A stretch of DNA of 40,032 nt from Candidatus Bathyarchaeum sp. (GCA_026014495.1 JAOZIF010000067.1:1-40032); one strand, 5' to 3'; numbered from the stretch's first letter, positions 20,277 to 39,597 are shown. The notes: generated by a model not told the origin, from the sequence alone. Translations and numbers: made by a program.

Positions 20277-21434
20277 ATGCCTAGAATATGCCTAGTAACT
20301 CACTTTTTTCCGCCCCACATGGGAGGCATAGAAAAGGTAGCCTATGAACAGTGCAAACGGTTAACCGATGCAGGCTACGAGATAGATGTTTTAACAAGCA
20401 AAGTAAAAGGACAACAAAAGCACCCTGCAAAAGGAATTCGAGTTTTTGCATATCCAAGCCTAAAGATTGCCGAAAGATTTGGAGTACCTTACCCAATTCT
20501 TACAGTGCAAGCCTACAAACAGTTTGCACAAGTCATAAAGAATTGCGACTTAGTTCATGCCCACGGTCACGTTTACATGTCATCATACCTTGCGGGCAAG
20601 CTCGCCAAGAAATACAAAAAGCCATTCATAGTAACCCAGCACAACACGTGGATAGACTACAAGTCATGGCTAAACACAATGGAAAACATAAATGACTTGA
20701 CCATAGGCAAATCTGTTCTGAAAAGCGCGGACCGCATACTAACAGTTAGCAATGAAACAAAAAAATATGTTCTAAGATTAGGCGCAGACAAAACAAAAAC
20801 GTCAGTAATGTACAACGGTGTGGACACAAAATTTTTCTGTGCAGCAAACAGAACAGAAAGCAGACAAAAGCTTGGGCTGCCCAAAAAACGAAAAATAGTT
20901 TTCAGTGCAAGAAGGCTAGTTTACAAAAATGGGTTAGACACCTTGATAGAATCGGCTCACATTGTTGCAAAAGATAAACATGATGTGCTGTTTGTTGTCG
21001 CAGGAAAAGGTCCAAGCAGAAAACTTATTGAAGATAGAATAAAAGAGCTTGGAATAGCAAACAGCATTATGTTAGCAGGATTCGTTCCAGACGAACTGCT
21101 ATCAACATACTACAACGCTGCCGACTACTTTGTTTTACCTTCTGCATCAGGAGAAGGACTGCCCCTCGTTCTTTTTGAAGCCATGTCATGCGGATTGCCA
21201 GTTGTCGCGACACGGGTTGGAGGAACACCAGAAATAGTTACGCACATGAAAAACGGGGTTCTTGTGCCCGCCAGAAATCCAAGGGCAATGGCAGAGGCGC
21301 TGTCTAAGTTGTTAGAGAAAGAGGGGCTAGGAAAAGAAATTGGCGAAGCAGCAAAACAAAGTATCCAAAACAAGTTAAGTTGGGAAGAAAATGTTCGTCA
21401 ACTAAAAGAAGTGTACAACCAATTTCTTGCGTAG
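20277..21434 (+). CDS. GT4-family glycosyltransferase
   Basis: FFPPHMGGIEK, VHAH, VMYNGVD, FVLPSASGEGLPLVLFEAMSCGLPVVATRVGGTPE. Start refined to MPRI at 20277. Confidence 0.93.
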   Translation: MPRICLVTHFFPPHMGGIEKVAYEQCKRLTDAGYEIDVLTSKVKGQQKHPAKGIRVFAYPSLKIAERFGVPYPILTVQAYKQFAQVIKNCDLVHAHGHVYMSSYLAGKLAKKYKKPFIVTQHNTWIDYKSWLNTMENINDLTIGKSVLKSADRILTVSNETKKYVLRLGADKTKTSVMYNGVDTKFFCAANRTESRQKLGLPKKRKIVFSARRLVYKNGLDTLIESAHIVAKDKHDVLFVVAGKGPSRKLIEDRIKELGIANSIMLAGFVPDELLSTYYNAADYFVLPSASGEGLPLVLFEAMSCGLPVVATRVGGTPEIVTHMKNGVLVPARNPRAMAEALSKLLEKEGLGKEIGEAAKQSIQNKLSWEENVRQLKEVYNQFLA

Positions 21435-21618
21435 AGAACTAAAACGAATTTAGCATCTGGACTTTTCTTAAGGAATAGGTTTTTTACAGTTTTTTTGAGA
21501 TATGCCACAAAAAGATGCTTCAGAATTCTTTTATTGGGACAAGCCTAAATGTAAGTTTAACTCGTAGAGGCTTATACTATGAAAAGAAGGGTTTGCCGTT
21601 TTCAGGGGATGGTGTAAG

Positions 21619-22209
21619 TTGAAGACACACCAAAGCAAGTTTATGGAAAAGAGAATTAAGAAAACTTCGCAGGGTACAGAGTCTACGTCAGGTGACAATG
21701 AAGAAAAAACAATAATTCTCACGATTTTGGTATCAATTGTAATTATAGGTGCACTCTTAGTAAATCTGATATTTTTTACGCCCGCAACCACAGAACCGTT
21801 TTCTGCGATATATGTTCTTGATTCAGAAAAACAGACAGCTAACTTGCCAAAAACGGTGGTTTTGGGTGAGAACAGCACTTTCATGTTATGGGTTGGCGTG
21901 GAAAACCAAAATGACACAACAATGAAGTACCAAGTGCAGGTTAAGATGGATGATGGAAATGGGCAACTGAATCAAAGTTTAGCAGAGCTAATTCAAAGCT
22001 TTGAGAACACACTCTTAGATGAAGAAGTTTGGGAGTTCAATGTAACAATAAACATTGACCAGTTGGGAAATAATAGGATAATATTTGAACTAATGACATT
22101 CAATAACACAATAAACGATTGGCAATACACAGGAAACTGGGTTAACATTTCAGTTGAAGCAACCCAAGCAACTTCAATAAATGCAAATGAACAACAGAAA
22201 GGTACATGA
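21619..22209 (+). CDS. DUF1616-like membrane-anchored protein
   Basis: One TM helix, then EPFSAIYVL...NLPKTVVLGE...VGVEN; this family is often found at archaeal glycosylation loci. Confidence 0.7.
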   Translation: MKTHQSKFMEKRIKKTSQGTESTSGDNEEKTIILTILVSIVIIGALLVNLIFFTPATTEPFSAIYVLDSEKQTANLPKTVVLGENSTFMLWVGVENQNDTTMKYQVQVKMDDGNGQLNQSLAELIQSFENTLLDEEVWEFNVTINIDQLGNNRIIFELMTFNNTINDWQYTGNWVNISVEATQATSINANEQQKGT

Positions 22210-22325
22210 AACACTGTTTTTTGGACAATGTGACCCCCCTTTCTGATGTAGAATAGGTTGAGTTCATTGGAAAGATTAACTAATGAGTTGCCCCTTAGAT
22301 TCCAGTCATTAATTGAGGAATTGCC

Positions 22326-23264
22326 TTGAAAACATTCAATGATAAAGAAGTTGTTGTTACTGGCGGCGCTGGCTTCATAGGCTCTAACCTGTGTAGAACT
22401 CTCTTAGAGCAAGGCGCCAAAGTAACTGCATACGACAACTTGTATTCAGGAAAAATGCATTTCATAAAAGACCTCATAGACAAAGGTCTTAACTTTGTAC
22501 AAGAAGACATCAGAGACCCAGTGGCGCTAGAAAAAGCAACAAAAAACTGTGAAGTTATTTTTCATCTAGCAGCACAAACAAGTGTTCCATTTTCTATGGA
22601 AAATCCCCAAGAAGACTGCGAAATTAACGTTGTTGGAACAGTAAATGTGCTTGAAGCTGCAAAAAAAGCTGGGGCTAGAGTGCTTTTTGCTTCTTCATGT
22701 GCAGTTTATGGCAACCCAGAGCAAAGACCGACACCTGAAACGTATCCGACAAAACCTATTGCATTTTATGGGTTAACAAAGTTGCTTGGCGAGAACTACT
22801 GTCGGTTTTACCAAGAACATTACGGTTTAGAGATTGTTATGTTCCGCATATTCAACGTTTATGGTCCAGACTGTCATGGAGCCATATACGATTTTCTCAA
22901 CAAATTACGAAAGACACCCGACAAACTTGAGATTTTAGGCACAGGAAAACAATCTAGAGACTTTGTTTACATATCAGACATGGTAAACATCTTACTAAAA
23001 GCCGCAATTTCTCCTGCAGCTCCAGGACAGGTCTTTAATGTGGGCACTGGAACCACAACATCCGTGGCAGAGTTAGGAAAAATGATTATTGAGATTCTTG
23101 GACTTGAGAATGTAAAAATTTCTTTCACAGGTGGACAAGCATGGGAAGGAGACATGGATATAACCCTCGCAGACAACAGAAAAGCAGTAAATACGCTACA
23201 GTGGAAACCTCAAGTTAGTTTAAAGGAAGGACTGAAAAAATTAATAAGCTCAGGAAAATACTAG
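22326..23264 (+). CDS. NAD-dependent NDP-sugar epimerase/dehydratase (extended SDR)
   Basis: VTGGAGFIGS, FHLAA, FASSCAVYG, YGLTK (YxxxK), RIFNVYGP, RDFVYISD. Confidence 0.95.
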   Translation: MKTFNDKEVVVTGGAGFIGSNLCRTLLEQGAKVTAYDNLYSGKMHFIKDLIDKGLNFVQEDIRDPVALEKATKNCEVIFHLAAQTSVPFSMENPQEDCEINVVGTVNVLEAAKKAGARVLFASSCAVYGNPEQRPTPETYPTKPIAFYGLTKLLGENYCRFYQEHYGLEIVMFRIFNVYGPDCHGAIYDFLNKLRKTPDKLEILGTGKQSRDFVYISDMVNILLKAAISPAAPGQVFNVGTGTTTSVAELGKMIIEILGLENVKISFTGGQAWEGDMDITLADNRKAVNTLQWKPQVSLKEGLKKLISSGKY

Positions 23265-23275
23265 GCTCGATTTAA

Positions 23276-24142
23276 ATGGCGTCGCTTAAAAAAAGGCTAA
23301 AAGCCGTTATTATGCTGATTCGACCGCCATATTGGCTCATGACTGGTGGTCTCTCAGTTTTAACAATAATTACTTTGAGAAGAGGCATGCTAGAAGCTTC
23401 TGACGCTATGTCATTAGCGTTAGTAGTTTTATCTGCAATTTGCATTAGCTCTGGCGGTTTTGCTTTCAACGATTACATTGACCAAGAATCAGACGCCATA
23501 GTAAAAAAGAACAGACCAATCCCTTCACAAACATTAGCACCATGGGAAGCCCTTGTTACAGCGGTAATCCTTTTCACAATTGGACTTGCAGCATCCATAA
23601 CAATCAACTGGTTATGTTTTGCAATTGCCCTCATGGACATGATTCTTCTTGTTGCTTATTCCAAAGTTATAAAGAAACATGCTGGCTTTTTAGGAAGCTT
23701 TCTTATGGGCCTGCTCATAGGAACATCATTTGTTTATGGCGAAGCAGCCATCTATGGAACAATAACAATCACATCATTCTCGTTATCGTTCATGAGCATG
23801 GGCAGCATCGGCGGAAACGTACTACGAGACGTACTAAGTTTAGAAGGAGACAAAAAGGCAGGCTACACAACTTTGGCAGCTAAAAGAGGCACAGAATTTG
23901 CTACTAAAATTGGAGCAATTTTCTTTTTACTCAACGTATTGGGTTCGCCCATTCCTTACTTGGTAGATGCAGTTAGTTATGCATACCTGATTCCAATAGT
24001 TATTTGGGACATAATTTTGGTTGTTTCAGGAGTGTCCCTGCTAAAAAACCAAAATATTGAAGCCGTAAAGAAACATGAAAGATTAGTGACCAGAACAATG
24101 ATACTAATACCAATTGCATTAATCGCGGGGGCTTTAGCGTGA
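23276..24142 (+). CDS. UbiA-family prenyltransferase, DGGGP-synthase-like
   Basis: LIRPPYW, FNDYIDQESDAIVKKNRPIPS, YSKVIKK..GFLGS, second motif RDVLSLEGDKKAGYTTLA; multi-TM. Confidence 0.88.
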   Translation: MASLKKRLKAVIMLIRPPYWLMTGGLSVLTIITLRRGMLEASDAMSLALVVLSAICISSGGFAFNDYIDQESDAIVKKNRPIPSQTLAPWEALVTAVILFTIGLAASITINWLCFAIALMDMILLVAYSKVIKKHAGFLGSFLMGLLIGTSFVYGEAAIYGTITITSFSLSFMSMGSIGGNVLRDVLSLEGDKKAGYTTLAAKRGTEFATKIGAIFFLLNVLGSPIPYLVDAVSYAYLIPIVIWDIILVVSGVSLLKNQNIEAVKKHERLVTRTMILIPIALIAGALA

Positions 24143-25641
24143 AAGACGAGGAACAAAAAATTCTTAGGGAAACTTTCAGCGTTTGCCCAGTGTGCCTAAA
24201 AAAGATAAAAGCACAAGTTGTGGAAAAAGACGGAAAAGTTTTGATTATAAAAGAGTGCAAAGAACACGGAAAGGTTAACGATACTTACTGGGCTAGAGCA
24301 GACATTTACCACAGGGCAGAAGAATACAAAAAGCCCTCACCTACTCCATTTCAAGACAACTGTCCCATGGGATGTGGAGTAACAGAGTGCAAAAACCACG
24401 TGTCTACGACAGTCATGGCGGTTATCGATGTAACCAACGAGTGTGACCTAAGGTGTCCAATATGTTTTGCAAACGCATCAAAGCCACCTGACCTGTATAG
24501 ACCAAGTCTAGAAACAATTCATAACATGCTAAAGTTCTTGAAGAATCAGGACCTGCCTCCGCTAGCAGTGATGTTTGCGGGTGGAGAACCCACAGTCCGT
24601 GACGACATAGTTGAAATCGTCAAGATGGCCCATGACATGAAATTCATGATTCTTCTTGCAACAAACGGCATCAGAATGTCCAACGACCCAGAACTGGTCA
24701 GGAAACTAAAGAAAGCAGGACTAAACATAGTATACCTGCAGTTTGATGGACTCACAGATGAACCCTACGAGAAACTAAGAAATGCAAAACTGCTCCCAAA
24801 TAAACTGCGGCTTGTTGAGCTTTGCCGAAAACATGACATTGAAATAATTTTGGTTCCAACAGTGCAGGGTGGCATAAACGACAACGAAATAGGAGACATC
24901 ATCAGGTTTGCCTCAAAAAATGTGGACATAATAAGAGGAATAGTTTTCCAGCCAATGTCATTTACAGGAAGAACATCGGAGTATGCGTCTAGAAAAAACA
25001 GAATCGACAACTCGCTTCTTGCCCAACTAATCGAGGAACAAACAAGAGGCATGATCACAGAAGAGGACATGTTTCCTGTTTCAGTTATGGTTCCACCGCT
25101 TAAAGTTATGAACAGCTTCTTAGCAAAAACATGGCCCCCATTTACGCCTACACCATACTGTGGACTTTGGAACTGGATTTTAGTTTCCAAAAGAGGAAAA
25201 CACATGTTTACACCAATCAACCGTTTCTTAAAGTTTGACAAGTTCATGTCAGACCTGAAAGTCTTAAATGGGCTGATTAAAAAGAAAAAAATTAGCAAAC
25301 TCGGGATTTACTTGAGGCTGTTTCTTGCTTCGGTTGGTTCTTTAGATTGGAAGAAAGTGCAAAGAGAAGCAGGTCTTTTGAATGCAATAAAAACACTGAT
25401 TCAAATACACACAGACCCGTCATACGATTCGTTAGGGTACATCAGACGAAGAATGCTACTGATAGGAGGCATGGCATTCATGGACCCATACACGTTCGAT
25501 GTTGAACGGGCACATCATTGCGTTATTCACTACGCAACTCCAGATAACCGAATTATACCTTTCTGCGTATACAACATGTTCTACCGAAAACAAACAGAGA
25601 AAAAATTCAGCATACCACAAATTAAAGTCAAGAACAAATAG
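24139..25641 (+). CDS. tes: Tetraether synthase (Tes/GDGT-MAS, MJ0619 family) radical SAM enzyme
   Basis: N-terminal SVCPVC...ECKEHG; CPxxCG...CxxH; rSAM motif CDLRCPICF; GGEPT, TNG, YLQFDG, LVPTV..GIND, FQP.SFTGR; C-terminal MAFMDPYTFDVER..CVIHYATPD.RIIPFC. GTGA overlap with the prenyltransferase. Confidence 0.85.
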   Translation: MKDEEQKILRETFSVCPVCLKKIKAQVVEKDGKVLIIKECKEHGKVNDTYWARADIYHRAEEYKKPSPTPFQDNCPMGCGVTECKNHVSTTVMAVIDVTNECDLRCPICFANASKPPDLYRPSLETIHNMLKFLKNQDLPPLAVMFAGGEPTVRDDIVEIVKMAHDMKFMILLATNGIRMSNDPELVRKLKKAGLNIVYLQFDGLTDEPYEKLRNAKLLPNKLRLVELCRKHDIEIILVPTVQGGINDNEIGDIIRFASKNVDIIRGIVFQPMSFTGRTSEYASRKNRIDNSLLAQLIEEQTRGMITEEDMFPVSVMVPPLKVMNSFLAKTWPPFTPTPYCGLWNWILVSKRGKHMFTPINRFLKFDKFMSDLKVLNGLIKKKKISKLGIYLRLFLASVGSLDWKKVQREAGLLNAIKTLIQIHTDPSYDSLGYIRRRMLLIGGMAFMDPYTFDVERAHHCVIHYATPDNRIIPFCVYNMFYRKQTEKKFSIPQIKVKNK

Positions 25642-25734: not shown

Positions 25735-27162
25735 TTAAAGTTTGTAGTAGTGCTCAAGTAGATGATGGTAATGTTCCGGAGGCATAAGGGAACGAAAGGC
25801 GCGTTCAACAACTTCGCTTAGAGCAGGGTGAATGTGCATGCTATCAAGTAGAGGTTTGGCGGTCTGTTCGTGCGTGTACATTAAGGGTATTATTTCGTGT
25901 ATGAGAACAGATGCATATGGTCCTATGATGTGGGCTCCAAGAATTTTCGTGCTGCCATTTTCCACGATAACTTTGACAAAATAGTCTTTTGCATCCATTG
26001 CTTCTCCTTTTCCGGTATCTTCGTATCTGTAAAAACCAATCAGCACCTTGTCTGCGCCATACTTTTCTATAGCAGCTTTTTCGCCCAAACCAACTGACGC
26101 AATCTCGGGATACGTAAAAACAGCGTGGGGCACTGCATGATAATCAGCCTTCACTTTTTGTTTCAGCACAGCATTATAGTAAACAACAGCCGCTTCGTGA
26201 TTGGCTACATGCTTGAATGGATGTTTGCCATTGGCGTCTCCAAGAGCCCAAACATTAGGCTGCGAAGTCTCCAAATACTCGTTAACAACAATCCAGCCAT
26301 GACGGTCAGTTTTTATTCCAGCTTTTTCGGGATGAAGCACATCAGAAAAGGAGCTTCTTCCAGTGGCTAGCAGTATCTCGTCTGCAGTTATTTCCAGTTT
26401 TTCGTTGGTTTGTAGATTAGTGGCAACAACACTTTTCTTGCTCTGAGAAGTCAATTTTGTCTCCTGAACTTCATAGTTGGTATAGATTTTCACATACTTT
26501 CCAAGTTCGCGTTTAGCAAGAGCCGACACTTCTGGTTCTTCAGCGTCGATAAAATCGGGAAGCCTACCAACAATTGTGACCTTTGCGCCCATGGAAGAAA
26601 AAAAGTGACCATATTCTGCGGCTACGTAACCGCCACCCACAATCACAAGGCTATCCGGCAGTTCAGTCATCTTAAGAACAGAATCGCTTGTAAGGTAACC
26701 AGTTTTGTCTATACCTTTTATTGGCGGGATAAGGGGTTTTGATCCTGTACCCAGAATAATCATTTTTGCAGTGATTGTTTCTTTGCCAACCTTGAGTGTG
26801 TATGGAGCAATAAATTCTGCAGCTTCAGGGTAATAATCCAAATGTTTTGATTGAGAAAGCCCTTGGCGAATATTGTTTATGTCCTCGTAGATTTTGTGTC
26901 TCATTCTTTCCATGACTTTGATAAAATCTACCTTTTTTAGTTCATAGTCGATTCCAAACGTTTTTGCCTTGTCAATTGTTTTCACTAACTCTGCAGGATA
27001 CAAAAGAAGCTTAGAGGGAATACAGCCCCTTGTTAAACAGATGCCTCCAGGCTCATCTTTGTCGATGACTGCGACCTTCGCTTTAGGGTTCTCTTGAATC
27101 ATAGCCTCAACAATAGCAATCGCAGAACCAGAGCCTATACAAATTAAATCGTACTGCTTCAT
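25735..27162 (-). CDS. Class I pyridine nucleotide-disulfide oxidoreductase (mycothione-reductase-like branch of the dihydrolipoamide dehydrogenase family)
   Basis: IGSGS FAD loop, GGICLTRGCIPSK redox CxxxxC, GGGYVAAEYGH, ALGD, HIHPALSE. Start refined to MKQYD at 27162. Confidence 0.88.
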   Translation of the reverse strand: MKQYDLICIGSGSAIAIVEAMIQENPKAKVAVIDKDEPGGICLTRGCIPSKLLLYPAELVKTIDKAKTFGIDYELKKVDFIKVMERMRHKIYEDINNIRQGLSQSKHLDYYPEAAEFIAPYTLKVGKETITAKMIILGTGSKPLIPPIKGIDKTGYLTSDSVLKMTELPDSLVIVGGGYVAAEYGHFFSSMGAKVTIVGRLPDFIDAEEPEVSALAKRELGKYVKIYTNYEVQETKLTSQSKKSVVATNLQTNEKLEITADEILLATGRSSFSDVLHPEKAGIKTDRHGWIVVNEYLETSQPNVWALGDANGKHPFKHVANHEAAVVYYNAVLKQKVKADYHAVPHAVFTYPEIASVGLGEKAAIEKYGADKVLIGFYRYEDTGKGEAMDAKDYFVKVIVENGSTKILGAHIIGPYASVLIHEIIPLMYTHEQTAKPLLDSMHIHPALSEVVERAFRSLMPPEHYHHLLEHYYKL

Positions 27163-27254
27163 AACAAAACCTCCAGAACACAATCTAACGTAACACAGAA
27201 TCTGCTTAAATCAATTCCTTAAAGGGCACAAAAGATGCCCTTTGAAGATTCAAC

Positions 27255-27830: not shown

Positions 27831-29117
27831 ATGACAACTAAATACGCTGAAACTTCGGTTGTTTACGAAAAAGCAATGCACTGGCCACCTTACACGTACC
27901 GAGATTATCCCAAAGCGTCGCCAGAATCGCTCCAAGAATTCATGGATATGCTAGCGACAGAGAACACCAGCAACGACAGAAAGGAACTACAACCATGGAT
28001 ACCTTTCTGCACGCTAAAGTGCAACTTTTGTTATTTTCCCACAGAACTGATTTCTAAAAACAAAATGGGAAACTACCTTGAGGCTCTAAAAAAATCGTTA
28101 AGTAGGTATGCAAAAACAAAATACATTAAGACAAGCGAGTTTTCCGAGGTATACTTGGCAGGTGGAACCCCAAGCATAATGTCCACCGATCAGACAATTG
28201 GTCTGTTATCGTTTTGTGAAAAAAACTTTGACATAAGTAAGGACCGAGAAATCAAAGTGACAGGATGCACTCACGATTTTGACTACAACAAACTCAAGGC
28301 ACTTTCAGAATATGGTGTTGACCAGCTGGATTTAGGTGTGCAAACCTTTGATGATAACATACGAAGATTAGTCAATCTGCGAGATAAAGCAAGAAATGCA
28401 GAAGAAATGATTAAAACAGCACATAAGCTGGGACTTCGCGTAAGCATCGATTTGATGTATAATCTTCCTGGACAGAGCCTAAAAGTCTGGGGCAGCGACA
28501 TACAAAGAGCCCTAGAATTGGATGTTGAAAGCGCGGATTGTTATGCGTTAGAAGTTTATCCTGGAACTAAGTTGGCTCAACAGCTGCAGTCTGGTGATTT
28601 ACCGCCTAGAGCTGACCAAGGAGCTGAAACACAGATGTACCTTGAAGCAAATAGTGTTTTCAAGGCGGCAGGATATGAAAAGACATGTCACAACCGGTTT
28701 TCGAGGATACCAGAAGACTTCCAAGAACCATGCATGGAGGTTCTGGGCACAGGTGCAGGCTTTTTTATGGGAAACTTGGGAAAATTCTCGTATGTAGACA
28801 TCGCGCCTTCCGAAGCATATATTGAAAAGATTAACAACGGAGAGTTTCCGATATCAAAACTTTCAGTGATGTCCACGGATGATGAGATGGGAAAGATGAT
28901 GATGCGTCTGTATATCCGTTTGCCCGTCAATAAGCAAGAGTTCAAGGTGCGTTTTGGAAAACTTCCAGAAGAAGCTTTTGAAGCAACAATCAACAAACTG
29001 GAAAAGAAGGGGCTAATTGAGATTGATGAACAGGAAATAAGGTTAACAAAGTTGGGCGACATATGGAGATATAATGTCTGCTGGGAGTTCTCTAGACCAC
29101 AAGAAAACAGTTCGTGA
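27831..29117 (+). CDS. HemN-like (class C-type) radical SAM enzyme
   Basis: IPFCTLKCNFCYF, VYLAGGTPS, LGVQTFDD, DLMYNLPGQ, LGTGAG, HemN-type C-terminal domain (IRLTKLG). Confidence 0.88.
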   Translation: MTTKYAETSVVYEKAMHWPPYTYRDYPKASPESLQEFMDMLATENTSNDRKELQPWIPFCTLKCNFCYFPTELISKNKMGNYLEALKKSLSRYAKTKYIKTSEFSEVYLAGGTPSIMSTDQTIGLLSFCEKNFDISKDREIKVTGCTHDFDYNKLKALSEYGVDQLDLGVQTFDDNIRRLVNLRDKARNAEEMIKTAHKLGLRVSIDLMYNLPGQSLKVWGSDIQRALELDVESADCYALEVYPGTKLAQQLQSGDLPPRADQGAETQMYLEANSVFKAAGYEKTCHNRFSRIPEDFQEPCMEVLGTGAGFFMGNLGKFSYVDIAPSEAYIEKINNGEFPISKLSVMSTDDEMGKMMMRLYIRLPVNKQEFKVRFGKLPEEAFEATINKLEKKGLIEIDEQEIRLTKLGDIWRYNVCWEFSRPQENSS

Positions 29118-29132: not shown

Positions 29133-29972
29133 TTGATGTTGAACGCGCTAAAAGTCTTTAGGGGCTTGATGGCTTTTCTTACAGCCATCCCTGTGAAGAT
29201 GGATGAAAGTTTTTTGGATATTTCTGCCAAGTTCATGTTCCTGTTTCCAGTGATAGGTATTATTATAGGAGTCCTTGTCGGAGCATATGCCCGATTCGCA
29301 AACACTGTTTTGTTCTCTCTTTTTGGCGCCATAAACAACATTGTTTTTTCAGGTTCTTACGAAGCTTTTTTCCAGTTTGCAGCCAAGGGGCTTGCAAGCG
29401 CCATGATTATCGCGTTCATACTTGTGATTATAGGGCTTCAGCACACAGACGGCTTAGTTGATGTTGGTAACGCTTTAGGCATGAGAAAAGCGTCCCTTGA
29501 AGATAAAGTGGACATTGCTCACGTATGGACGGTTACACGAACAGGAGCCTTTCTTGCTCTGGCTGTTTCGTTCTTCACGTTTTTACTTATCTTCCTGACA
29601 AAAACGGATGTAATAATCCAAGCGCTCATAGTTGCAGAGGTTTCAGCTAAATTAGCAATGGTTACTACTGGGTGGCAAGGCACGTCCCCACCGCCCAAGT
29701 TCTATGAAAACAGGTGGGAAAAAGGAAGAAGCTTCATTGATTCAATTAGGAAAAAACATGGGCTATACGCTATTTCGTTAGGTATTTCACTTGTCGTTAG
29801 CGTTGCATTATTTGGTTTAACGGGTGTTTTTGCCGTAGTTGCTGGAATGCTGGTAGGTAGCGTCATGATAGTTGTGGGCAAGCAGGTTTTTGGAGGAGTA
29901 AATGGAGATATTTTTGGCGCCACTAATGAGATTGCCCGAATGGTTGCATTGTTTGTGTTGGTGATTTTGTGA
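29133..29972 (+). CDS. cobS: Adenosylcobinamide-GDP ribazoletransferase (cobalamin synthase) CobS
   Basis: FLTAIPV, FPVIG, GLQHTDGLVD, GGVNGDIFGATNEIAR; multi-TM; adjacent to cobY. Confidence 0.88.
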   Translation: MMLNALKVFRGLMAFLTAIPVKMDESFLDISAKFMFLFPVIGIIIGVLVGAYARFANTVLFSLFGAINNIVFSGSYEAFFQFAAKGLASAMIIAFILVIIGLQHTDGLVDVGNALGMRKASLEDKVDIAHVWTVTRTGAFLALAVSFFTFLLIFLTKTDVIIQALIVAEVSAKLAMVTTGWQGTSPPPKFYENRWEKGRSFIDSIRKKHGLYAISLGISLVVSVALFGLTGVFAVVAGMLVGSVMIVVGKQVFGGVNGDIFGATNEIARMVALFVLVIL

Positions 29973-31826: not shown

Positions 31827-32444
31827 TTAACTGGATTTTTGATCAAGCTCCTTTAGGAAACGCAGCAACTCATCCTCGATTATCCACTGCATCTTGAAGT
31901 GATTATTGTAGTCGTTAAAGATTCTATAGAGCCAATACGCAGCTGCTAAACCAAAGGTTGCAACACTAAGAAAAACATACTTACCTATCGCAAATTTGGG
32001 TGTAGTCGCGTAACTTTGGATGTTCAAAGGCACTCCAGAATCTTTTGCCAATGCAAGTATTTCATGCAAAAAATCGTGTTCGTGCTCTTCGTGTTTTTGA
32101 AGGTCAGTCTTTAAAGAGTAAAAAAGGTAAAAGGCTGGAACAATTAGAAGCGTTGAAAGAGTCAAGGCTTTCTCATTTCTGGAGGACAGTTTAACTGTTT
32201 TTGGAGATTCGGGTGCACTCTGTGGATTTCGAGTTTTTCTAAGCTTGCTCAGGATTAGTGTTTCCAGTTTTTCTTGTCTAGCGAAGTGGTCGTTTCTTCT
32301 TTTGATTGTGTAGTATATCATTGGAAACCAAGCTATTCCAAAACTTGCTACCGATAGAACAGCCCACATAGAGAACCACATGATGCGGTCTGTTTCTTTT
32401 CTTGTTGCGATGTTTTTTTCGATTTCCAGCAGAGTTTGCTTCAC
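31827..32444 (-). CDS. DUF4234-like membrane protein with an internal duplication (ORF open from 32531)
   Basis: Two similar halves (LSVASFGIAWFPMIYYTIKRRNDHF and LSVATFGLAAAYWLYRIFNDYNNHF); GGAG RBS upstream of the GTG at 32444. Confidence 0.65.
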   Translation of the reverse strand: MKQTLLEIEKNIATRKETDRIMWFSMWAVLSVASFGIAWFPMIYYTIKRRNDHFARQEKLETLILSKLRKTRNPQSAPESPKTVKLSSRNEKALTLSTLLIVPAFYLFYSLKTDLQKHEEHEHDFLHEILALAKDSGVPLNIQSYATTPKFAIGKYVFLSVATFGLAAAYWLYRIFNDYNNHFKMQWIIEDELLRFLKELDQKSS

Positions 32445-32567
32445 TTTGGTTAAGTCTCTCCATGAGTGTTCATGCTGTGAACAACAATGCAGAACTACAA
32501 CCTGATTTAATATAAAAAGTGAACCATTCATTCACTTGTATGAAAGTGTTGGCAAACTATTTAATTC

Positions 32568-33311
32568 ATGAAAGGGGACATCTCTGAGACAATGGCAAAA
32601 GGTAACAAAGACATGGAGCGAGAAAATTTTTTCGTTTCTGTTATTATTCCAGTGTTCAATGAGGAAGTAACGGTAGGAGGCATAGTTACTCGAACAAAGG
32701 ATACTTTGGAAAAGATGGGAGTGTTATACGAAGTTTTGGTTGTTGATGATGGGTCAGATGACAGGTCAGCAGAGGTAGCAAATGAACGAAAAGCCACTGT
32801 GATAAGTGCTGCCCATCAGGGGAAAGGTTTTGCGCTCCGTTCTGGTTTTAGACAAGCTAAAGGCGAATTTGTAGTTACATTGGATGGGGATGGTTCTCAC
32901 AAGCCAGAAGAGATTCCGTTGGTTCTACGGGGCATAATGGAGGACAGGGCTGATTTTGTGGTTGGTTCAAGATTCGCTAATTCTGAAGACAACAAGACTA
33001 AGATTCCGAAAATAAACAGGATGGGAAACAGGTTGTTTAACAACATGACTGGATATCTTACTGGCGTAAATATTTCGGATTCTCAATCTGGTTTTAGAGC
33101 AATTCGAGCATCATTAATCAAAAAGATGAAGTTAACTTCTCACGGCTATGAAGTTGAGTCTGAAATGCTTGTTAAAGCATTGCGGATGGGCGCAAGAGTT
33201 GCGGAAACGCCCATAAGTTTTGACCAAAGGACGGTAGGAAATTCTAAGCTTGACCCCATAAGAGATGGCGCAAGAATACTTTATGCCATAATAGCATCTT
33301 ATTTATCATAA
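32568..33311 (+). CDS. GT2 DPM1-like lipid-phosphate glycosyltransferase
   Basis: SVIIPVFNEE, VVDDGSDD, HQGKG.ALRSG, TLDGDGSHKPEEI, VVGSRF, DSQSGFRA, YEVESEM. Confidence 0.92.
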   Translation: MKGDISETMAKGNKDMERENFFVSVIIPVFNEEVTVGGIVTRTKDTLEKMGVLYEVLVVDDGSDDRSAEVANERKATVISAAHQGKGFALRSGFRQAKGEFVVTLDGDGSHKPEEIPLVLRGIMEDRADFVVGSRFANSEDNKTKIPKINRMGNRLFNNMTGYLTGVNISDSQSGFRAIRASLIKKMKLTSHGYEVESEMLVKALRMGARVAETPISFDQRTVGNSKLDPIRDGARILYAIIASYLS

Positions 33312-33363: not shown

Positions 33364-34389
33364 TTGAAAAACAAAGAGCCTAAACAAGAAAAGGAGCCGC
33401 TTTTAGGAGTTAGCATAATAGTAACCACATTTAACAGCGCACCGACAATAGATGAGTGCCTTCGCTCGATTCTGGAACTGGATTACCCCAAAGAGTTACT
33501 TGAAGTAATAGTGGTTGATGGGGGTTCAACAGACGCAACAATGGAAATCGCAAAAACACATCCAGTTAAACTGGTTTATAGTCAACTTAACCCTGCTGCT
33601 GCTTACAACCTTGTTTTGAAAAATGTAGAAAACGAGGTAATAGGCTTAATTGATTCTGACGCCAAAGTGGAAAAAAGTTGGCTTAGAAAGCTTGTTAGGC
33701 ACTTAGATGACCCAGAGGTTGCTGGAGCAAGCGGAACCGTGGAAACATGGAACAGTGATAGTTTGGTTCCAAGAGTTATAGGTTATGAACTGAATTACAG
33801 GTATCAAAGGCTTCCCAAAACGGTTGAAAGAGTAGCAACCATGAACCTGTTACTGAAAACGAAGGTAACCATGGAAATTGGAGGCTTTGATGAGGCTCTT
33901 CCAACACAGTATGATACAGACATAGGAGCAAGATTAGCCAAGAAGGGCTACAAGATAGCGTTTGACATTGAAGCAAAATGTTACCATTTTCATCGTCCAA
34001 CACTGAGAACGTTCTTCAAGCAGCAGTACAAGTATGGTCAGAACACGTGGAAGCTGTATTTCAAACATCCAAAGTTGGCTAGTGGTGACAAAATAACGGA
34101 CAGGTGGATGAATGTTCAGCCAATACTGTGTGGGGTTGCAGGCATATTGCTTCTAGTTAGTGTAGTTACAGGCTTTCATTGGATTCCATCATTGATGTTT
34201 CTAGCTATTGTTCTTGCAACAACACTGCATTACGTGTTGTCTGCTGTAAAAATTTCATACATTTTTCATGACCCAACAGCCATGTATCTTGTTGTAATTT
34301 ATTTCACCAGAGCCTTAGGGTGGACACTAGGAGGAACAACCTCTTTAATCCAAACAGCGTTAACACGAGGAGAGGACAGAAAAAATTGA
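33364..34389 (+). CDS. GT2 glycosyltransferase with C-terminal TM helices
   Basis: SIIVTTFNS, VVDGGSTD, IDSD, IGGFDE, QQYKYG (QxxRW-like), C-terminal hydrophobic segments. Confidence 0.9.
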   Translation: MKNKEPKQEKEPLLGVSIIVTTFNSAPTIDECLRSILELDYPKELLEVIVVDGGSTDATMEIAKTHPVKLVYSQLNPAAAYNLVLKNVENEVIGLIDSDAKVEKSWLRKLVRHLDDPEVAGASGTVETWNSDSLVPRVIGYELNYRYQRLPKTVERVATMNLLLKTKVTMEIGGFDEALPTQYDTDIGARLAKKGYKIAFDIEAKCYHFHRPTLRTFFKQQYKYGQNTWKLYFKHPKLASGDKITDRWMNVQPILCGVAGILLLVSVVTGFHWIPSLMFLAIVLATTLHYVLSAVKISYIFHDPTAMYLVVIYFTRALGWTLGGTTSLIQTALTRGEDRKN

Positions 34390-35576
34390 ACGTGTGCTTT
34401 GTAACTCCAGAGTACTTCCCAATTTCAGGCGGAACAGGAGCTTATGTGTATTATCTTTCACATAGTCTCCAAAAAATGGGACATAACGTTCACGTGGTAG
34501 CCAGAGACAAGCAAGACTCTGAGCGAACAATTAACGGAATCCAAGTCCATTACATAAAAGGCGTAGGAAACGCCCTAACCAGATACTGGCGATTCGCCCG
34601 CTCAGCCTCCAAAAAAATAAAAGAACTGAACAAACAAAGTGGCTTGGACATAATACACGCTAACCTTCCTTTGGTTCCAAGTTTTGCCATACCAAACGTT
34701 TCATCCAAGGTTGTTTGTGCAGTTCACTCAACATGGAAAGGAGAAGCCATAGTAACAAAACAAGACAACCCCAAAGAGCTAAATCCCAACGAAAAGTCGA
34801 TGCTTCGCTTCAATTTTGTGCTCAGAAAATACGAAAAAAGTTTGATGAAGCGTTCAGATGCCCTGATTGCAGTGAGCAAATACACTGTTAATGAGCTAAC
34901 AGACCTTTATGGCATCAACAAAAATAAGATTCATGTAATCTACAACGGTGTTGACACACAAAAATTCAAGCCACGACAAAACAGGGCTGAGCTACGAAAA
35001 GAATTTGGCTTAGAAGAAGACAAGAAAATAGTTCTCTTTGTTGGGCGCCTCTATCATCGAAAGGGGCTGGAAACCTTATTGCAGTCAATTCCGTCAGTCC
35101 TTAAAGAAGAAAGTAACGTAAAGTTTGTCATATCAGGAAAAGGCTTCAAGCAAAAAGAAGAAAACCTGAAAAATCTAGCAAAAGAGTTGAATATAGAAGA
35201 TTACGTGACGTTTCTGGGTTATGTTCCAGATGAAAAACTGCCTAACTTATACTCTGCATCTGACATATTTGTGCTACCAGCAATTTACGAAAACTTTCCA
35301 TTCGCCATACTTGAAGCCCAATCTAGTGCGCTTCCAGTTATTTCTACTAAAGTTGGAGGAATACCAGAGTTTTTAGTAGATAACGAAAACGGGTTTTTGA
35401 TAGACCACGGAGACCCAAAACAGATAACACAAAAAGTGTTAGCTTTGCTGCAGAATCCCAAACGTGCACAAGAAATGGGTGAATATGGAAGAAAGTTAAT
35501 AGAAGAAAAGTTTGATTGGAACCTGATTACCAAGCAAGTAATTGACTTGTATCACAAGCTTTTAGAGGAAACTTAA
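34386..35576 (+). CDS. GT4-family glycosyltransferase
   Basis: TTG start overlapping the upstream TGA; YFPISGGTG, IHAN, IYNGVD, FVGRL..RKG, FVLPAIYENFPFAILEAQSSALPVISTKVGGIPE. Confidence 0.93.
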   Translation: MNVCFVTPEYFPISGGTGAYVYYLSHSLQKMGHNVHVVARDKQDSERTINGIQVHYIKGVGNALTRYWRFARSASKKIKELNKQSGLDIIHANLPLVPSFAIPNVSSKVVCAVHSTWKGEAIVTKQDNPKELNPNEKSMLRFNFVLRKYEKSLMKRSDALIAVSKYTVNELTDLYGINKNKIHVIYNGVDTQKFKPRQNRAELRKEFGLEEDKKIVLFVGRLYHRKGLETLLQSIPSVLKEESNVKFVISGKGFKQKEENLKNLAKELNIEDYVTFLGYVPDEKLPNLYSASDIFVLPAIYENFPFAILEAQSSALPVISTKVGGIPEFLVDNENGFLIDHGDPKQITQKVLALLQNPKRAQEMGEYGRKLIEEKFDWNLITKQVIDLYHKLLEET

Positions 35577-36577
35577 CGGGGCAAAGAGTTGTCCCAGTGT
35601 TTATCTATCCACTCTTTTCCTTTGATTTCTGTATCGACTTTCCTGTAGACATTCAGGCAGCCCTGTAGCATATTCAAAAAGGGTGTGCCAAAACAAAGGC
35701 GTGTAAGAAAATAGTTTTTGTAAACCCATCGCTGAGTACGAACCGCCAAATCAGCATATGGAAGAAGAAAAGGGCGTTTCACATTTTCGATGTTTTCGCC
35801 TATAATTTGGGTCCGGCTTTGTTCGCGTTGCAAATGTTTGTCAATAAACTTTAGGTAACTGATGTCAGCCCAGTCAATGCCCATTATTTCACAGCACAGC
35901 TTGTCCATGGCAAGAAGATCACTACTTGCTAGGATAAGATTCATGGGTATGACAATTCCTCTGTTGGGTCCGTTTCCTTCCATGGCAAACGTAGCGTCCA
36001 TAACAACAAGCTTGGGTTTTAACAAAACTAGCAAATCATGCATAACCATGTCAAATTTAGGATGCAGAAAAATGCGTCTATCGTTTGGTATGCAGCCAAA
36101 CAGGTTCTTCATGGCGCCACTGTAGGTTGTGAACTCGTGAGTCTTCATAACTGGAACGTCAATAACACAGTCCGCGGCTACAATAGTTTTAGGCAATGGA
36201 AAAATGTTCAAACAAAAGGTTTTGTCACTTTGAACGTTTACGGTTTCGTCGTTAGACAAGTTGATTGCAGTTCCGCCAGCTTTTTCAACAACCTTCTTTA
36301 CGCCAGTCATTGCCAGAGCATCGTCGCAACAGTAATTGTAGCCGTTAGATTCGCCGACAATAACTTCTTCAGCTCTGTCCCGAAGAAGACACACCAAATG
36401 AAACAGTAAAACAGGGTTTGTGACAGCCCCCTGAATGTAATATTTAGAGCACAAATTTGGTTTTATGAAAACCTTACCGCGAACATGCCTATCCCAGTCA
36501 GCAGCTTTTAGTGCCTCTTTTAGGGCTGACTCTAAACTGTCATCGGTTTTAAAAACACCAATATTTACCGTTTTCAT
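35573..36577 (-). CDS. DUF362-domain protein
   Basis: VFIKPNL, VTNP, VIVGES, VPVMKTH...GAMKNLFG, DATFAMEGNGP, ASSDLLAMD; 3 bp downstream of the rSAM/SPASM gene. Confidence 0.85.
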   Translation of the reverse strand: MKTVNIGVFKTDDSLESALKEALKAADWDRHVRGKVFIKPNLCSKYYIQGAVTNPVLLFHLVCLLRDRAEEVIVGESNGYNYCCDDALAMTGVKKVVEKAGGTAINLSNDETVNVQSDKTFCLNIFPLPKTIVAADCVIDVPVMKTHEFTTYSGAMKNLFGCIPNDRRIFLHPKFDMVMHDLLVLLKPKLVVMDATFAMEGNGPNRGIVIPMNLILASSDLLAMDKLCCEIMGIDWADISYLKFIDKHLQREQSRTQIIGENIENVKRPFLLPYADLAVRTQRWVYKNYFLTRLCFGTPFLNMLQGCLNVYRKVDTEIKGKEWIDKHWDNSLPR

Positions 36578-36580: not shown

Positions 36581-37993
36581 TCAGTCGCCCTCCGATAATT
36601 TTCTGATGCAGCCGGGGTCAGACATAAGATAGTCGTCATGATACGCATAGGCTCTTGCTCTGCATCCGCCACAAACAAACTTGTAATCACATTTGCTGCA
36701 GCGCCCCTTTAGCTTTGCTCTGTCTCGCAGGTCATTTAAAACTGGAGAGTTAAACCAAATGTCTTCTATGCGTTCAGTCTTTAGATTTCCGACTACCAGT
36801 GGCATGAAAACACAAGGTTGAACGTCACCTTCTGGAGAGATTGCGCAATAGAATCGTCCAGCGCCACATCCGCCAATAAAGTCGGCTAGAGCTTTTGCTC
36901 TTTTGCTTACCTTAGCGGCTTCCATGTGTGCAAGAGGCAACACAATGTCCTCTTGGGTTGGAGAATGACACTGCAAAGCAACTCGAGCAAGTTGAGGCGT
37001 GGTGCTCAGTATCGCTATTTTATGGTCCTCAGACAATTGTTTATTGAAGTAGCGTAAAAGTTCCTCTCGCTCTTTTGGAGACGGATCAGCAGCAACTATC
37101 TCTTTGCCTCTACCTGTGGGAACAAAATTGAATAACGTAAACCTGTCAATTCCCATATTCTCAGCCATTTCAAGAACTGCAGGAATTTCTGTCAGATTAT
37201 TTTTAGTTCCAGTTATTGCGATGCATGTGCAGATTCCTTTGTTCATGCAGTTTTTTAATCCCTGTAAAGTCTGCTCAAAAGCCCCAGTTTTTCCCCTGAA
37301 GAAATCGTGCGTTTTAGCGTTAGCTCCATCAAGGCTAACTTCCACGTAATGGAGCCCAATTTCTTTGAGTTTTCTAACGTTTTCCTCGTTAAGCAAGGTT
37401 CCATTTGTAGCTAAAGAGACATACAGTCCCGCATCAACTGCGTGACGTGCAACTTCAAAGAAATCTTTTCTCATCAAGGGTTCACCCCCTGAAAAGGCTA
37501 AAGATGTTACACCAAAATCTGCTAATTGGTCCACAACTTTCATGGCTTCCTCGGTGGAGAGTTCCATCTTTGAGCTGCTGCCCGAGTCTGAGTAGCAGTG
37601 TTTGCATTTGAGGTTGCATTTGTATGTGAAATTCCATACAACAAGAAAGGGGGCATGAACTTGTATTGGACGGTTGAAACCAAACTCGGCAAATCCATAC
37701 ACTATGCTGTTTATGGCTCGTCTAACATAAGAGTCCGAGAAAAGTTTAGAAACACGGCTCTTTTCAACAGCTAACGATTTTTGTATAAATTTTATCCAGA
37801 ATTCTATGACTCTAACGTAAATGCTGCACGATGAGCAGTTTGAATGATTCTTGCCAGAATAATTGTCTAACGCAGTTTCAAGTGGGGTGTGATTACATTT
37901 TGAACAAGTTTTCAGAGCGGTGTTCAGCATCCATTTTACGGGAGGCAGCTTTAGGATTGCATTCCAGAGTTTTTCGTTTGTTAGCACATTCAT
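36581..37993 (-). CDS. Radical SAM/SPASM enzyme with an N-terminal CxxC...CxxC site, candidate GMGT synthase (Gms)-like
   Basis: CSKC-x19-CSSC; APFLVVWNFTYKCNLKCKHCY; SGGEP; FNFVPTGRG; SPASM motifs GGCGAGR...QPC...CSKC...CGGCRARAY...DPGC. The rSAM/SPASM call is firm; the Gms assignment is inference. Confidence 0.85.
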   Translation of the reverse strand: MNVLTNEKLWNAILKLPPVKWMLNTALKTCSKCNHTPLETALDNYSGKNHSNCSSCSIYVRVIEFWIKFIQKSLAVEKSRVSKLFSDSYVRRAINSIVYGFAEFGFNRPIQVHAPFLVVWNFTYKCNLKCKHCYSDSGSSSKMELSTEEAMKVVDQLADFGVTSLAFSGGEPLMRKDFFEVARHAVDAGLYVSLATNGTLLNEENVRKLKEIGLHYVEVSLDGANAKTHDFFRGKTGAFEQTLQGLKNCMNKGICTCIAITGTKNNLTEIPAVLEMAENMGIDRFTLFNFVPTGRGKEIVAADPSPKEREELLRYFNKQLSEDHKIAILSTTPQLARVALQCHSPTQEDIVLPLAHMEAAKVSKRAKALADFIGGCGAGRFYCAISPEGDVQPCVFMPLVVGNLKTERIEDIWFNSPVLNDLRDRAKLKGRCSKCDYKFVCGGCRARAYAYHDDYLMSDPGCIRKLSEGD

Positions 37994-38196
37994 TGAAATC
38001 GGTCCAAACTGATGGTTGGAGATACCGTATTAGGTTAGTAGTGGAAACGGAAAAAATAAACTTACCGAGAAAAAAGAGGCGTAAAACTCTAACAAAAAGC
38101 CACGTCAAATAACTTAACAGATTTTTGTAAAGCAACAATTTAAAAGCAATTCTCTAATTGTTTAGTCTAATGGTTAGCTCCAATAGGGTATGAAAA

Positions 38197-39597
38197 ATGA
38201 CGAACAAATCAGTCAAAATAGCGCTGGTAAATCCACCTACATTAAAAGGCGTCTATAGACACCAGCTTTATCTACCCATTGGATTAGCATACCTAGCCGC
38301 TGTTCTTGAAGAGAATGGACACGAAGTAACAGTGATGGATTGCCCAGCATTACACATGGATAACGAAGATTTAAGAAAAAAATTATCCAGCTTTGAACCA
38401 CAGATTGTTGGAATCACATCTATGACACCAACAATACAGTCTGCTCTTCTAGCTGCACAGGTTGCGAAAGAAGCCTGCCCTGAAGCAACAGTTGTTCTAG
38501 GAGGAGCCCACGCCACATTCATGGATGAACAACTAATCACAGAGCAAGCAATTGACATAGTAGTAAGGGGCGAGGGCGAAAAAACCATACTAGAACTAGC
38601 ACAAAATGTGTCCAACCCAAAAGCGCTCAATAGCATTGAAGGAATAACATTTAGAAACAACGGACAAACCGTTCGTACACCTAACAGAGACCTCATACAA
38701 AACCTTGACGAATTGCCACTTCCAGCATACAAACACTTCTCGTTAGAAAAATATCGGCTTTTTGGACGAAAAATACTTCCAATAATAAGCAGTCGAGGAT
38801 GCCCGTTCCAATGCTCGTTTTGTGTAACAAGTCGGATGTTTGGAAAAGCATTCCGTGCAAGAAGTCCCAAGAGTGTAGTGGATGAACTGGAATGGCTAAA
38901 AGATGTGCATGGAGCAGATGCATTCACGTTTTACGATGACACATTTACATTTGACAAAAAAAGAGCACTTGATATTTGTCAAGAAATGAAGAACCGAAAG
39001 ATTAAGATTCCATGGGATTGCCAAACAAGAGTTGACCAAGTGTCTAAAGACATGTTACAGACAATGAAAGAAGCTAACTGCCAACAGGTTTTCTTTGGAA
39101 TTGAATCAGGCTGCCAACAAATGCTCAACACCATGAAAAAAAGAACATCAATTGAGCAAAACGAGCAGGCAATCAAATGGGCAAAAGAAACAGGACTATT
39201 TGTCGCTGTACCCTTGATTATTGGGTATCCAGGAGAAACAAAAGACACATTCAAGCAAACACTTGAGTTCATCCGAAAAGTACAACCCGACGACGCGTAC
39301 ATATGCGTAGCAACACCTTACCCAGGCACTGAACTTCGCAAAACCGTTGAAAACAACGGATGGAAAATGTCTTCCAACTGGAGCCAATACGATACAATAA
39401 CACCAGTTTTCGAAAATCCTCTACTATCATCTGAAGACATCACAAAAATAAGAAGCAAATTCTACAACAGCTTTTACTCACCAACATACGTTATCAGACA
39501 ATCAATAAAAGGACTAAAAGGCAACTTTTATAGCAAAATTATGGCGCGAACCGCGATTAACCACATGATTTGGCGAGCAAAGTCAATATTTATGTGA
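38197..39597 (+). CDS. Cobalamin-binding (class B) radical SAM enzyme, probable methyltransferase
   Basis: B12 domain LPIGLAYLAA, VGITSMTP, GGAHAT, VRGEGE; rSAM motif SRGCPFQCSFC; YDDTFT, GIESG, IIGYPGET, TPYPGTEL. Confidence 0.92.
   Translation: MTNKSVKIALVNPPTLKGVYRHQLYLPIGLAYLAAVLEENGHEVTVMDCPALHMDNEDLRKKLSSFEPQIVGITSMTPTIQSALLAAQVAKEACPEATVVLGGAHATFMDEQLITEQAIDIVVRGEGEKTILELAQNVSNPKALNSIEGITFRNNGQTVRTPNRDLIQNLDELPLPAYKHFSLEKYRLFGRKILPIISSRGCPFQCSFCVTSRMFGKAFRARSPKSVVDELEWLKDVHGADAFTFYDDTFTFDKKRALDICQEMKNRKIKIPWDCQTRVDQVSKDMLQTMKEANCQQVFFGIESGCQQMLNTMKKRTSIEQNEQAIKWAKETGLFVAVPLIIGYPGETKDTFKQTLEFIRKVQPDDAYICVATPYPGTELRKTVENNGWKMSSNWSQYDTITPVFENPLLSSEDITKIRSKFYNSFYSPTYVIRQSIKGLKGNFYSKIMARTAINHMIWRAKSIFM

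Follow-up and report, generated by a model that had tools for sequence, protein, structure and literature searches.

Archaeal lipid genes are usually scattered, and a locus that gathers them raises the question of what its genes make together and why they stay together. We ask this of a 40,032-nucleotide stretch of DNA (the window; contig C49, GCA_026014495.1 JAOZIF010000067.1:1-40032) from a Candidatus Bathyarchaeum metagenome-assembled genome (MAG) of 2.19 Mb and 93% completeness, in which a block from ~20.3 to 39.6 kb carries lipid, sugar, radical S-adenosylmethionine (SAM) and cobamide (cob) genes recognized with Pfam and NCBIfam. A first-pass annotation, made from the sequence alone, had read this block as one supercluster that builds, cross-links, methylates and glycosylates tetraether lipids, and that carries late cobamide steps for its own B12-dependent enzyme. 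We think it probable, though well short of certain, that the block is the lipid end of a cobamide/radical SAM island kept by two lineages of Bathyarchaeia, that its conserved core makes a specialized tetraether glycolipid beside the housekeeping tetraethers, and that its cob paralogs finish or remodel a cobamide. No description of this gene combination was found in the literature searched.

Conservation of the core beyond the genus

Gene classes were assigned by Pfam and NCBIfam profile searches against curated cut-offs, and every class named by the first-pass annotation is present where it had been placed. Fourteen of the genes form a core that occurs both in Ca. Bathyarchaeum (Baizosediminiarchaeum, Bathy-8) and in a sister family, with orthologs 40-59% identical: two family 4 and two family 2 glycosyltransferases (GT4a, GT4b, GT2a and GT2b), a DUF1616 protein, an epimerase, the prenyltransferase UbiA2, the tetraether-synthase paralog Tes2, the cobamide paralogs CobS2, CobY2 and CobD2, a small membrane protein, a Gms-like radical SAM/SPASM enzyme and a DUF362 protein. 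In a review, the cultured Bathyarchaeum strain M17CTs is equated with Baizosediminiarchaeum, a genus formerly called subgroup 8. Conservation of the core was assessed from 16 sister-family loci, ~35 more loci from MAGs and two annotated records; records of the sister family include Bathy-6-labelled and Bathycorpusculum MAGs, and soil and peat MAGs of that family carry the cluster as well.

Genes are packed more tightly in the sister family than in the window. The blocks there comprise GT4a followed by a GT2 gene and DUF1616; epimerase, UbiA2 and Tes2, with a 4-bp overlap at every junction; CobS2, CobY2, the SPASM gene and DUF362, running divergently from epimerase-UbiA2-Tes2; GT2a, GT2b and GT4b; and the membrane protein followed by CobD2. 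The order and orientation of these blocks vary between sister-family genomes and the genes remain together, with gatB, PAC2, the dihydrolipoyl dehydrogenase gene (Lpd) and the ortholog of the window's HemN-like gene all outside the cluster. Synteny across relatives, named by the first-pass annotation as a check on its proposal, therefore extends well beyond the genus, in the form of a core that is rearranged but retained. Among congeners the entire window is colinear, gatCAB, PAC2, Lpd and the chemotaxis (che) genes included; we rejected this within-genus synteny as evidence, because housekeeping genes are equally colinear there.

The phyletic ranges of the lipid and cob paralogs coincide. A survey of 301 genomes from the class found UbiA2 in no lineage other than the genus and one sister family, and in 401 genomes of the phylum CobS2 was likewise found only in these two. 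In this phylum-wide sample, all of the other CobS2-positive genomes (22 of 22) are also UbiA2-positive.

A complete congener genome (G005) places the block in a larger setting. It carries one contiguous ~66-kb island (G005:C1:421000-487000; L183, L182, L012, L013), of which the window block is one end, and which joins the counterparts of contigs C193, C129, C144, C135 and C49 of the window's own genome. Because these contigs are contiguous in G005, findings made on each of them belong together. The G005 island holds CbiB2, CobS1, CbiZ and B12-binding/MtrH genes, and the own-genome contigs that match it, window included, account for 15 of the 46 radical SAM matches in the 2.19-Mb genome. Four of the 46 lie in the 19.3 kb of the block, against a Poisson expectation of 0.4 (P ~0.001), a value to be read with the caveat that radical SAM genes are generally clustered in this genome.

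The first-pass annotation was right about the gene classes it named and left out Lpd and the membrane protein, which also lie inside the block. Additionally, the genes are divided among at least seven transcription units on the two strands, and thus the block is not one operon. On the plus strand, epimerase, UbiA2 and Tes2 form one unit (an 11-bp gap, then a 4-bp overlap), the HemN-like gene, CobS2 and CobY2 another (a 15-bp gap, then a 4-bp overlap), and GT2a, GT2b and GT4b a further one. Minus-strand units lead from the membrane protein to CobD2 and from the SPASM gene to DUF362, and a B12-binding radical SAM gene is divergent from the SPASM gene, with 203 bp between the two.

UbiA2 and Tes2 as extra core-lipid paralogs

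By homology, UbiA2 (23276..24142, plus strand; PF01040) and Tes2 (24139..25641, plus strand; NF045702), which overlap by 4 bp, are extra paralogs, and the main digeranylgeranylglyceryl phosphate (DGGGP) synthase-like gene and the main Tes gene stand on other contigs. The NCBIfam models that fit UbiA2 best are of DGGGP synthase (DGGGPS) type, NF009521 and NF009523, at 151.3 bits against a cut-off of 296 and 161.5 against 269. UbiA2 also resembles DGGGP synthases in its eight or so hydrophobic helices and in its first Asp-rich motif, NDYIDQESD, of the form NDxxDxxxD. The DGGGPS-like paralog on contig C122, to which it is 27% identical, outscores it (191.6 and 237.4 bits), yet also falls below both cut-offs. 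The initial identification of UbiA2 as DGGGP-synthase-like is thus borne out by its best models, but not as the cell's main enzyme, given the copy on C122.

Relatives of UbiA2 are few. In a library of 1.84 billion proteins just 20 cluster representatives matched at E<1e-30, and a search of 5.8 billion proteins returned near-identical congeners among the matches listed. The distant relatives, at 33-41% identity, are solitary genes or lie on tiny contigs, so that their surroundings were uninformative.

Tes2 scores 502.9 bits against the cut-off of 450 (502.7 in the genome search) and aligns end to end, at 436 bits, with the glycerol dialkyl glycerol tetraether (GDGT) synthase GDGT-MAS of M. jannaschii (7TOL). 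It shares with the Tes/GDGT-MAS enzymes (Saci_0703, MA_1486, MJ0619; 7TOL/7TOM) full-length homology, the same four metal-site motifs and a conserved Tyr. With the metal-site residues of GDGT-MAS taken from PMC9433317, the 7TOL alignment shows that Tes2 retains the rubredoxin CX2C..CX2H, the three Cys and the His of the N-cluster, CX3CX2C, and the equivalents of Met439 and Tyr459; because these motifs and residues are retained, Tes2 looks active. Its N-cluster motif reads C-x3-C-x4-C-x2-H, a two-residue insertion relative to the C-x3-C-x2-C-x2-H of GDGT-MAS. Unlike the known enzymes, it is a fast-evolving extra paralog, and in every case a UbiA paralog is coupled to it.

The housekeeping enzyme, Tes1, is encoded on contig C72; it scores 679 bits and is 41% identical to Tes2. 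In a tree of 45 Tes sequences, Tes2 of the genus and the sister family split from Tes1 with 100% SH-aLRT support, on a long stem of 1.36 substitutions per site, whereas Tes1 sequences are short-branched. Tes1 is present in 137 of the 151 genomes of the order, and cluster-bearing genomes hold both Tes1 and Tes2. The early assignment of this gene to the Tes family therefore stands on score and metal motifs, and its place as the main Tes does not, as it belongs to a clade of its own. Tes-like sequences of other kinds also occur: a third, very divergent type (L174, G327:C146:20952-22436) is 41% identical to Tes1 and sits on a terminal branch of 2.25, and a 'TesX' type, 50-53% identical, is found in other families of the order.

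Two small contigs of the MAG carry related fragments, namely C184 (1417 bp), with the end of an epimerase gene, UbiA2 and the start of Tes2, and C164, with GT2a. We rejected the idea that these are second copies of UbiA2-Tes2 and GT2a, as they are 76-80% identical to the window and 87-89% identical to G005, a complete genome that itself carries a single copy of each. They are probably DNA from a second, co-binned Bathyarchaeum population.

A Gms homolog and its neighbours

The SPASM gene (36581..37993, minus strand) encodes a radical SAM domain at residues 121-276 and a SPASM domain at residues 376-436, preceded by a 115-aa N-terminal extension ahead of the radical SAM domain. Its product is 77% identical to UCC58939.1 of Ca. 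Bathyarchaeum bin115, which appears on the sheet 'Archaeal domain-Gms-homologs' of Li et al. 2024 (44.65% identity, E 3e-108, 470 aa), as does the sister-family ortholog KON32415.1 (47.15%, 3e-109). The thresholds of that study were BLASTP E<1e-50, identity >30% and length >420 aa against characterized Gms, the synthase of GMGTs (glycerol monoalkyl glycerol tetraethers); the window protein comes within them through its congener ortholog UCC58939.1, not by direct comparison. On this evidence it is a Gms homolog, as the first-pass annotation had supposed. It is the genome's sole Gms-type gene, the next SPASM paralog being 37% identical, and an ESM Atlas look-up of the protein returned generic names only.

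The arrangement recalls the gms-grs-gmm cluster of Thermococcus guaymasensis and METOK_RS04425, in that a radical SAM and SPASM protein with an extra N-terminal domain adjoins a B12-radical SAM gene. Various anaerobic archaea, among them Methanomicrobiales, Archaeoglobaceae, Thermoplasmata and Methanomethylicia, encode homologs at 38-48% identity, with no cluster partners beside them. The window gene, in contrast, is set among DUF362, glycosyltransferases, Tes2/UbiA2 and cob paralogs, none of which stands beside those Gms homologs. The window lineage also differs from the Gms of other archaea in four invariant N-terminal cysteines (C30, C33, C53 and C56), which form a possible extra metal site. 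Matches from other archaea often start past the Cys region, at query residue 17 to 72.

The DUF362 gene downstream (35573..36577, minus strand; PF04015, 159.7 bits) was found beside the Gms-like gene inside this cluster only. Its predicted structure (pLDDT 81) comes nearest in fold to LarA-type racemases, with a Foldseek probability of 1.0 and a TM of ~0.4, and a sequence search of the PDB with the protein gave no match. We considered a nickel-pincer enzyme of LarA type and rejected it, given the weak fold match and a search for LarC that found none in this 93%-complete genome.

On the other side of the SPASM gene lies the B12-binding radical SAM gene (38197..39597, plus strand; PF02310 and PF04055). 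All of its NCBIfam matches are below cut-off, with the generic models BchE and HpnJ the best, and its product is 40-41% identical to those of B12-radical SAM genes that adjoin Gms homologs in Alkanophaga and Archaeoglobaceae MAGs. The B12-radical SAM methylase Gmm often adjoins gms, and Bathyarchaeota hold many Gmm-like paralogs (Garcia et al.). The window gene, which has eight or more paralogs, fits this pattern both in its domains and in its adjacency to gms, and is a candidate Gmm-like lipid tailoring enzyme. The first-pass annotation had counted it in the cluster, but it lies outside the conserved core: in the complete congener G005 the ortholog (67% identical) lies elsewhere in the island, adjoining CbiB2 and not the Gms-like gene.

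A second, diverged set of cobamide genes

Three cob genes stand in the block. CobS2 (29133..29972, plus strand; PF02654) is an integral membrane protein and a diverged paralog of cobamide-5'-phosphate synthase; CobY2 (29969..30583, plus strand), which overlaps it by 4 bp, is a MobA-like nucleoside triphosphate transferase of CobY type; and CobD2 (30612..31751, minus strand; TIGR01140) is a paralog in the threonine-phosphate decarboxylase/HisC family. With CbiB2 they represent the same four families as the CobD-CbiB-CobY-CobS set of Salmonella and archaea, with CobS and CobY overlapping as in canonical operons and the invariant residues of CobS kept.

Profile scores nonetheless set these proteins apart from canonical nucleotide-loop assembly enzymes. 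CobS2 passes its Pfam threshold (85.8 bits against 23.2) and fails TIGR00317 (93.5 against 110). CobY2 is below both of its cut-offs (TIGR00454, 122.1 bits against 174.7; NF045495, 99.1 against 250). CobD2 passes TIGR01140 (296.7 bits against 290.55) and also the HisC model (280.2 against 276.55), and its nearest structure is Salmonella CobD. Relative to canonical CobS, CobS2 retains 27 family-invariant residues, shows five fixed differences and is ~25 aa longer.

Counterparts of canonical type are encoded elsewhere in the genome: CobD1, which scores 310 bits with TIGR01140, adjoins CbiB1 on contig C59, and contig C193 has the canonical CobS1 next to CbiZ and B12-binding/MtrH genes. In the CobS tree a 100% branch separates the lipid-adjoining copies of both lineages from the CobS that stand with CbiZ or CobY1, and a 100% branch likewise separates lipid-adjoining CobY2 of both lineages from the CobY next to canonical CobS. 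As judged from these trees and scores, cobS, cobY and cobD of the window are diverged paralogs and not the housekeeping copies, a second set with separate CobS and CobY clades that is co-inherited with lipid genes. Their role is thus less certain than a supply of B12 to one enzyme; of the first-pass proposal for the cobamide genes, the co-inheritance with lipid genes is upheld and the plain late-step supply is not.

CobY2 is the sole CobY-type gene found in the genus. Since the genus keeps CobS1, CbiZ and CobD1-CbiB1 and no other CobY, CobY2 probably still guanylylates adenosylcobinamide phosphate. Among the congeners CbiB2 was found in 17 of 18, and in the sister family in 26 of 35 genomes, at 1-25 kb from the cluster where it is on the same contig. 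The canonical CobS1 of the genus (C193:45298-46041 in the window's genome; congeners L149, L152 and L153) lies on a very long branch of 2.5 substitutions per site, with no CobY1 seen at its side in this genus; CobS1 may have changed role after the loss of CobY1.

Sugar enzymes, accessory genes and flanks

The first gene of the block, GT4a (20277..21434, plus strand; Pfam Glycos_transf_1 and Glyco_transf_4), probably starts at ATG 20277; the longest open reading frame (from 20103) overlaps gatB, and the sister-family orthologs are 385 aa long. It is followed by the DUF1616 membrane protein (21619..22209, plus strand; PF07760, 59.6 bits), with one hydrophobic helix, and by a short-chain dehydrogenase/reductase of the NDP-hexose 4-epimerase type (22326..23264, plus strand; PF01370, 203 bits), whose nearest solved structures are archaeal UDP-glucose 4-epimerases. 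Further along the plus strand, GT2a (32568..33311; PF00535) is a short GT2 enzyme like the polyprenyl-phosphate hexose transferases AglJ and DPM (TIGR04182, 172 bits against 325), GT2b (33364..34389; Pfam GT2 families) has two C-terminal hydrophobic helices, and GT4b (34320..35576) matches both Pfam and NCBIfam GT4 models. The small membrane protein transcribed ahead of CobD2 (31827..32531, minus strand) has two to three hydrophobic segments and no Pfam or NCBIfam family over threshold, and it always adjoins CobD2 in the genus and the sister family.

Two further genes inside the block do not belong to the core. Lpd (25735..27183, minus strand; NF004947, 759.6 bits against 592) is at the same spot in congeners and absent from sister-family clusters, and is a genus-level passenger unrelated to the conserved core. 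The HemN-like, class C-type radical SAM gene (27831..29117, plus strand) has ChuW/HutW as its best match and is below every named cut-off (ChuW/HutW, 212 bits against 400; HemW, 153 against 205; HemN, 118 against 325). The first-pass annotation had counted it as part of the cluster, a place it loses here, as it lies outside the conserved core and is found at this spot in four of ten congeners. A paralog with 49% identity is on contig C193, and in the sister family the edge of the cluster repeatedly carries HemN-like genes; the gene is an accessory, variable member.

In its first 20 kb the window carries gatCAB and a PAC2 gene as well as a chemotaxis cluster. The chemotaxis cluster (3548-12531) is complete, with CheD, two CheC, CheR, two tandem pairs of a PAS-domain methyl-accepting chemotaxis protein and CheW, and CheB, and it is also kept in the congener G005. 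At the very start, positions 1-2000 have 31% G+C, compared with ~41% elsewhere, and contain a 572-aa open reading frame (191-1909, minus strand) with no Pfam match. The PAC2 gene (17957-18661) is 18 kb from the Gms-like gene, with the cluster in between. In other orders of Bathyarchaeia (hot-spring MAGs; L132, L136, L137, L139, L141-L143) PAC2 lies 1-4 kb upstream of the Gms homolog, and it looks as if the cluster has grown or been inserted between these old neighbours.

Discussion

We propose a pathway whose steps all derive from family membership and linkage. UbiA2 would add an isoprenoid chain to a lipid precursor, Tes2, translationally coupled to it, would join the chain ends, and the Gms-type enzyme would cross-link the two biphytanyl chains to give a GMGT. 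The GalE-type epimerase would provide a sugar donor, and the two GT4 and two or three GT2 enzymes would add sugars. CobD2, CobY2 and CobS2, with CbiB2 nearby, probably finish or remodel a cobamide for the island's many B12-radical SAM enzymes, the product of the neighbouring Gmm-like gene being one of those so served. The resulting lipid could be of GMGT type or have an unconventional backbone, with methyl-GMGT and butanetriol lipids as candidates only.

Several points weigh against this reading. UbiA2 is under every DGGGPS model cut-off, and its second Asp-rich motif, RDVLSLEGD (D..S...D), departs from that of DGGGP synthases, with Ser where the second motif of UbiA prenyltransferases is expected to have its middle Asp. 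The cluster is without an extra geranylgeranylglyceryl phosphate (GGGP) synthase, and hence it is not obvious what would feed a separate lipid pool. In place of a lipid head group, the product of the five glycosyltransferases could be a surface glycan. The tightest partnership of CobS2-CobY2 is with epimerase-UbiA2-Tes2, and as Tes2 and Gms are B12-independent, cofactor supply is no explanation for it. Finally, MA_1114, the second Tes of M. acetivorans, gave no GDGT and just traces of macrocyclic archaeol; as the sole tested second Tes copy, it offers a precedent for altered Tes output (PMC8941075).

The partnership of CobS2-CobY2 with UbiA2-Tes2 speaks for a rival reading, in which the second cob set no longer makes cobamide. 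CobD2 would then form an amino-alcohol phosphate, CobY2 would convert it into a GDP derivative, and CobS2 would transfer this to a hydroxyl group on either the UbiA2/Tes2 lipid or the sugar of that lipid, yielding a phosphodiester head group or an unusual backbone, with cobamide paralogs used in the manner of a Kennedy- or LicC/LicD-like route. All sister-family loci have the two gene groups side by side and divergent, including those from which the Gms and glycosyltransferase blocks have moved away; the five fixed differences of the longer CobS2 lie beside the conserved HxDGxxD region; the canonical CobS1, together with CobY1 in the sister family, coexists with the second set; and the 14-gene core includes no corrin-handling gene. 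However, a second CbiB, a corrin-specific amide synthase, is found nearby in the same lineages, the genus is without any other CobY and yet has CobS1, CbiZ and CobD1-CbiB1, the cluster lies inside a cobamide-rich island, and no precedent for a CobS outside cobamide synthesis was found in the literature searched. It was the single CobY of the genus, the presence of CbiB2 in the same lineages and the contiguity of the cobamide island that turned us towards cobamide chemistry and led us to demote head-group synthesis from its place as leading idea; we now regard it as unlikely.

A different product is conceivable for the sugar genes: the glycosyltransferases, the AglJ/DPM-like GT2, DUF1616 and the epimerase would together assemble a surface polysaccharide or lipoglycan, with UbiA2 and Tes2 giving no more than its special carrier or anchor lipid and the cob genes being neighbours by descent. 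Such a product is hard to square with the fixed membership of the genome's sole Gms-type gene, from a family that acts on tetraether cores; the core showed neither an oligosaccharyltransferase nor a flippase, and descent alone would not predict the strict co-occurrence of cob paralogs and UbiA2 despite repeated rearrangement. We consider it distinctly improbable, even though GT2a is closest to polyprenyl-phosphate hexose transferases, DUF1616 is an archaeal membrane protein family, and one sister-family genome has large PQQ_2/Big-domain proteins within its cluster or at its flanks. Least of all do we favour the view that the genes form no unit and are an accidental neighbourhood, preserved by common descent in a genome with many radical SAM genes. 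Colinearity within the genus covers the whole window and so says nothing on linkage, and the genes do lie on both strands in several units. Nevertheless, the core has persisted at 40-59% identity while its gatB, PAC2 and Lpd flanks were lost and its block order altered, the phyletic patterns of UbiA2, CobS2 and Tes2 coincide, and genes overlap by 4 bp within blocks; already disfavoured on these counts, coincidence has a very slim chance of being the explanation.

A specialized tetraether glycolipid, made beside the housekeeping tetraethers and next to a cobamide-finishing set, remains our preferred reading, and one known lipid class may be linked to it. Butanetriol tetraethers (BDGTs) are named as the lineage-specific lipid and biomarker of the window's genus in a review (PMC12694404), which cites Dong et al. 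2025; Methanomassiliicoccus luminyensis is the other known producer of BDGTs. Because the cluster is also in sister-family soil and peat MAGs, for which no lipid data were found, we treat a BDGT role as a lead, not a finding. In one version of it, UbiA2-Tes2 and the diverged CobD2/CbiB2/CobY2/CobS2 do not repeat known chemistry but together build the unconventional tetraethers of these archaea. The cob set would make and attach a unit of non-glycerol or phospho-amino-alcohol type, and the non-standard diether so formed would be the substrate of UbiA2 and Tes2. We think this unlikely, but if true it would explain why that review names BDGTs as the biomarker of the genus.

We know of no enzymes for several sedimentary biomarker lipids, among them butanetriol and pentanetriol tetraethers, many methylated forms and glycosidic head groups. 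The compact, conserved gene set described here supplies a short and testable list of candidate genes for such lipids. A further question that it poses is why these archaea should pass on an entire second pathway for finishing cobamide along with lipid genes.

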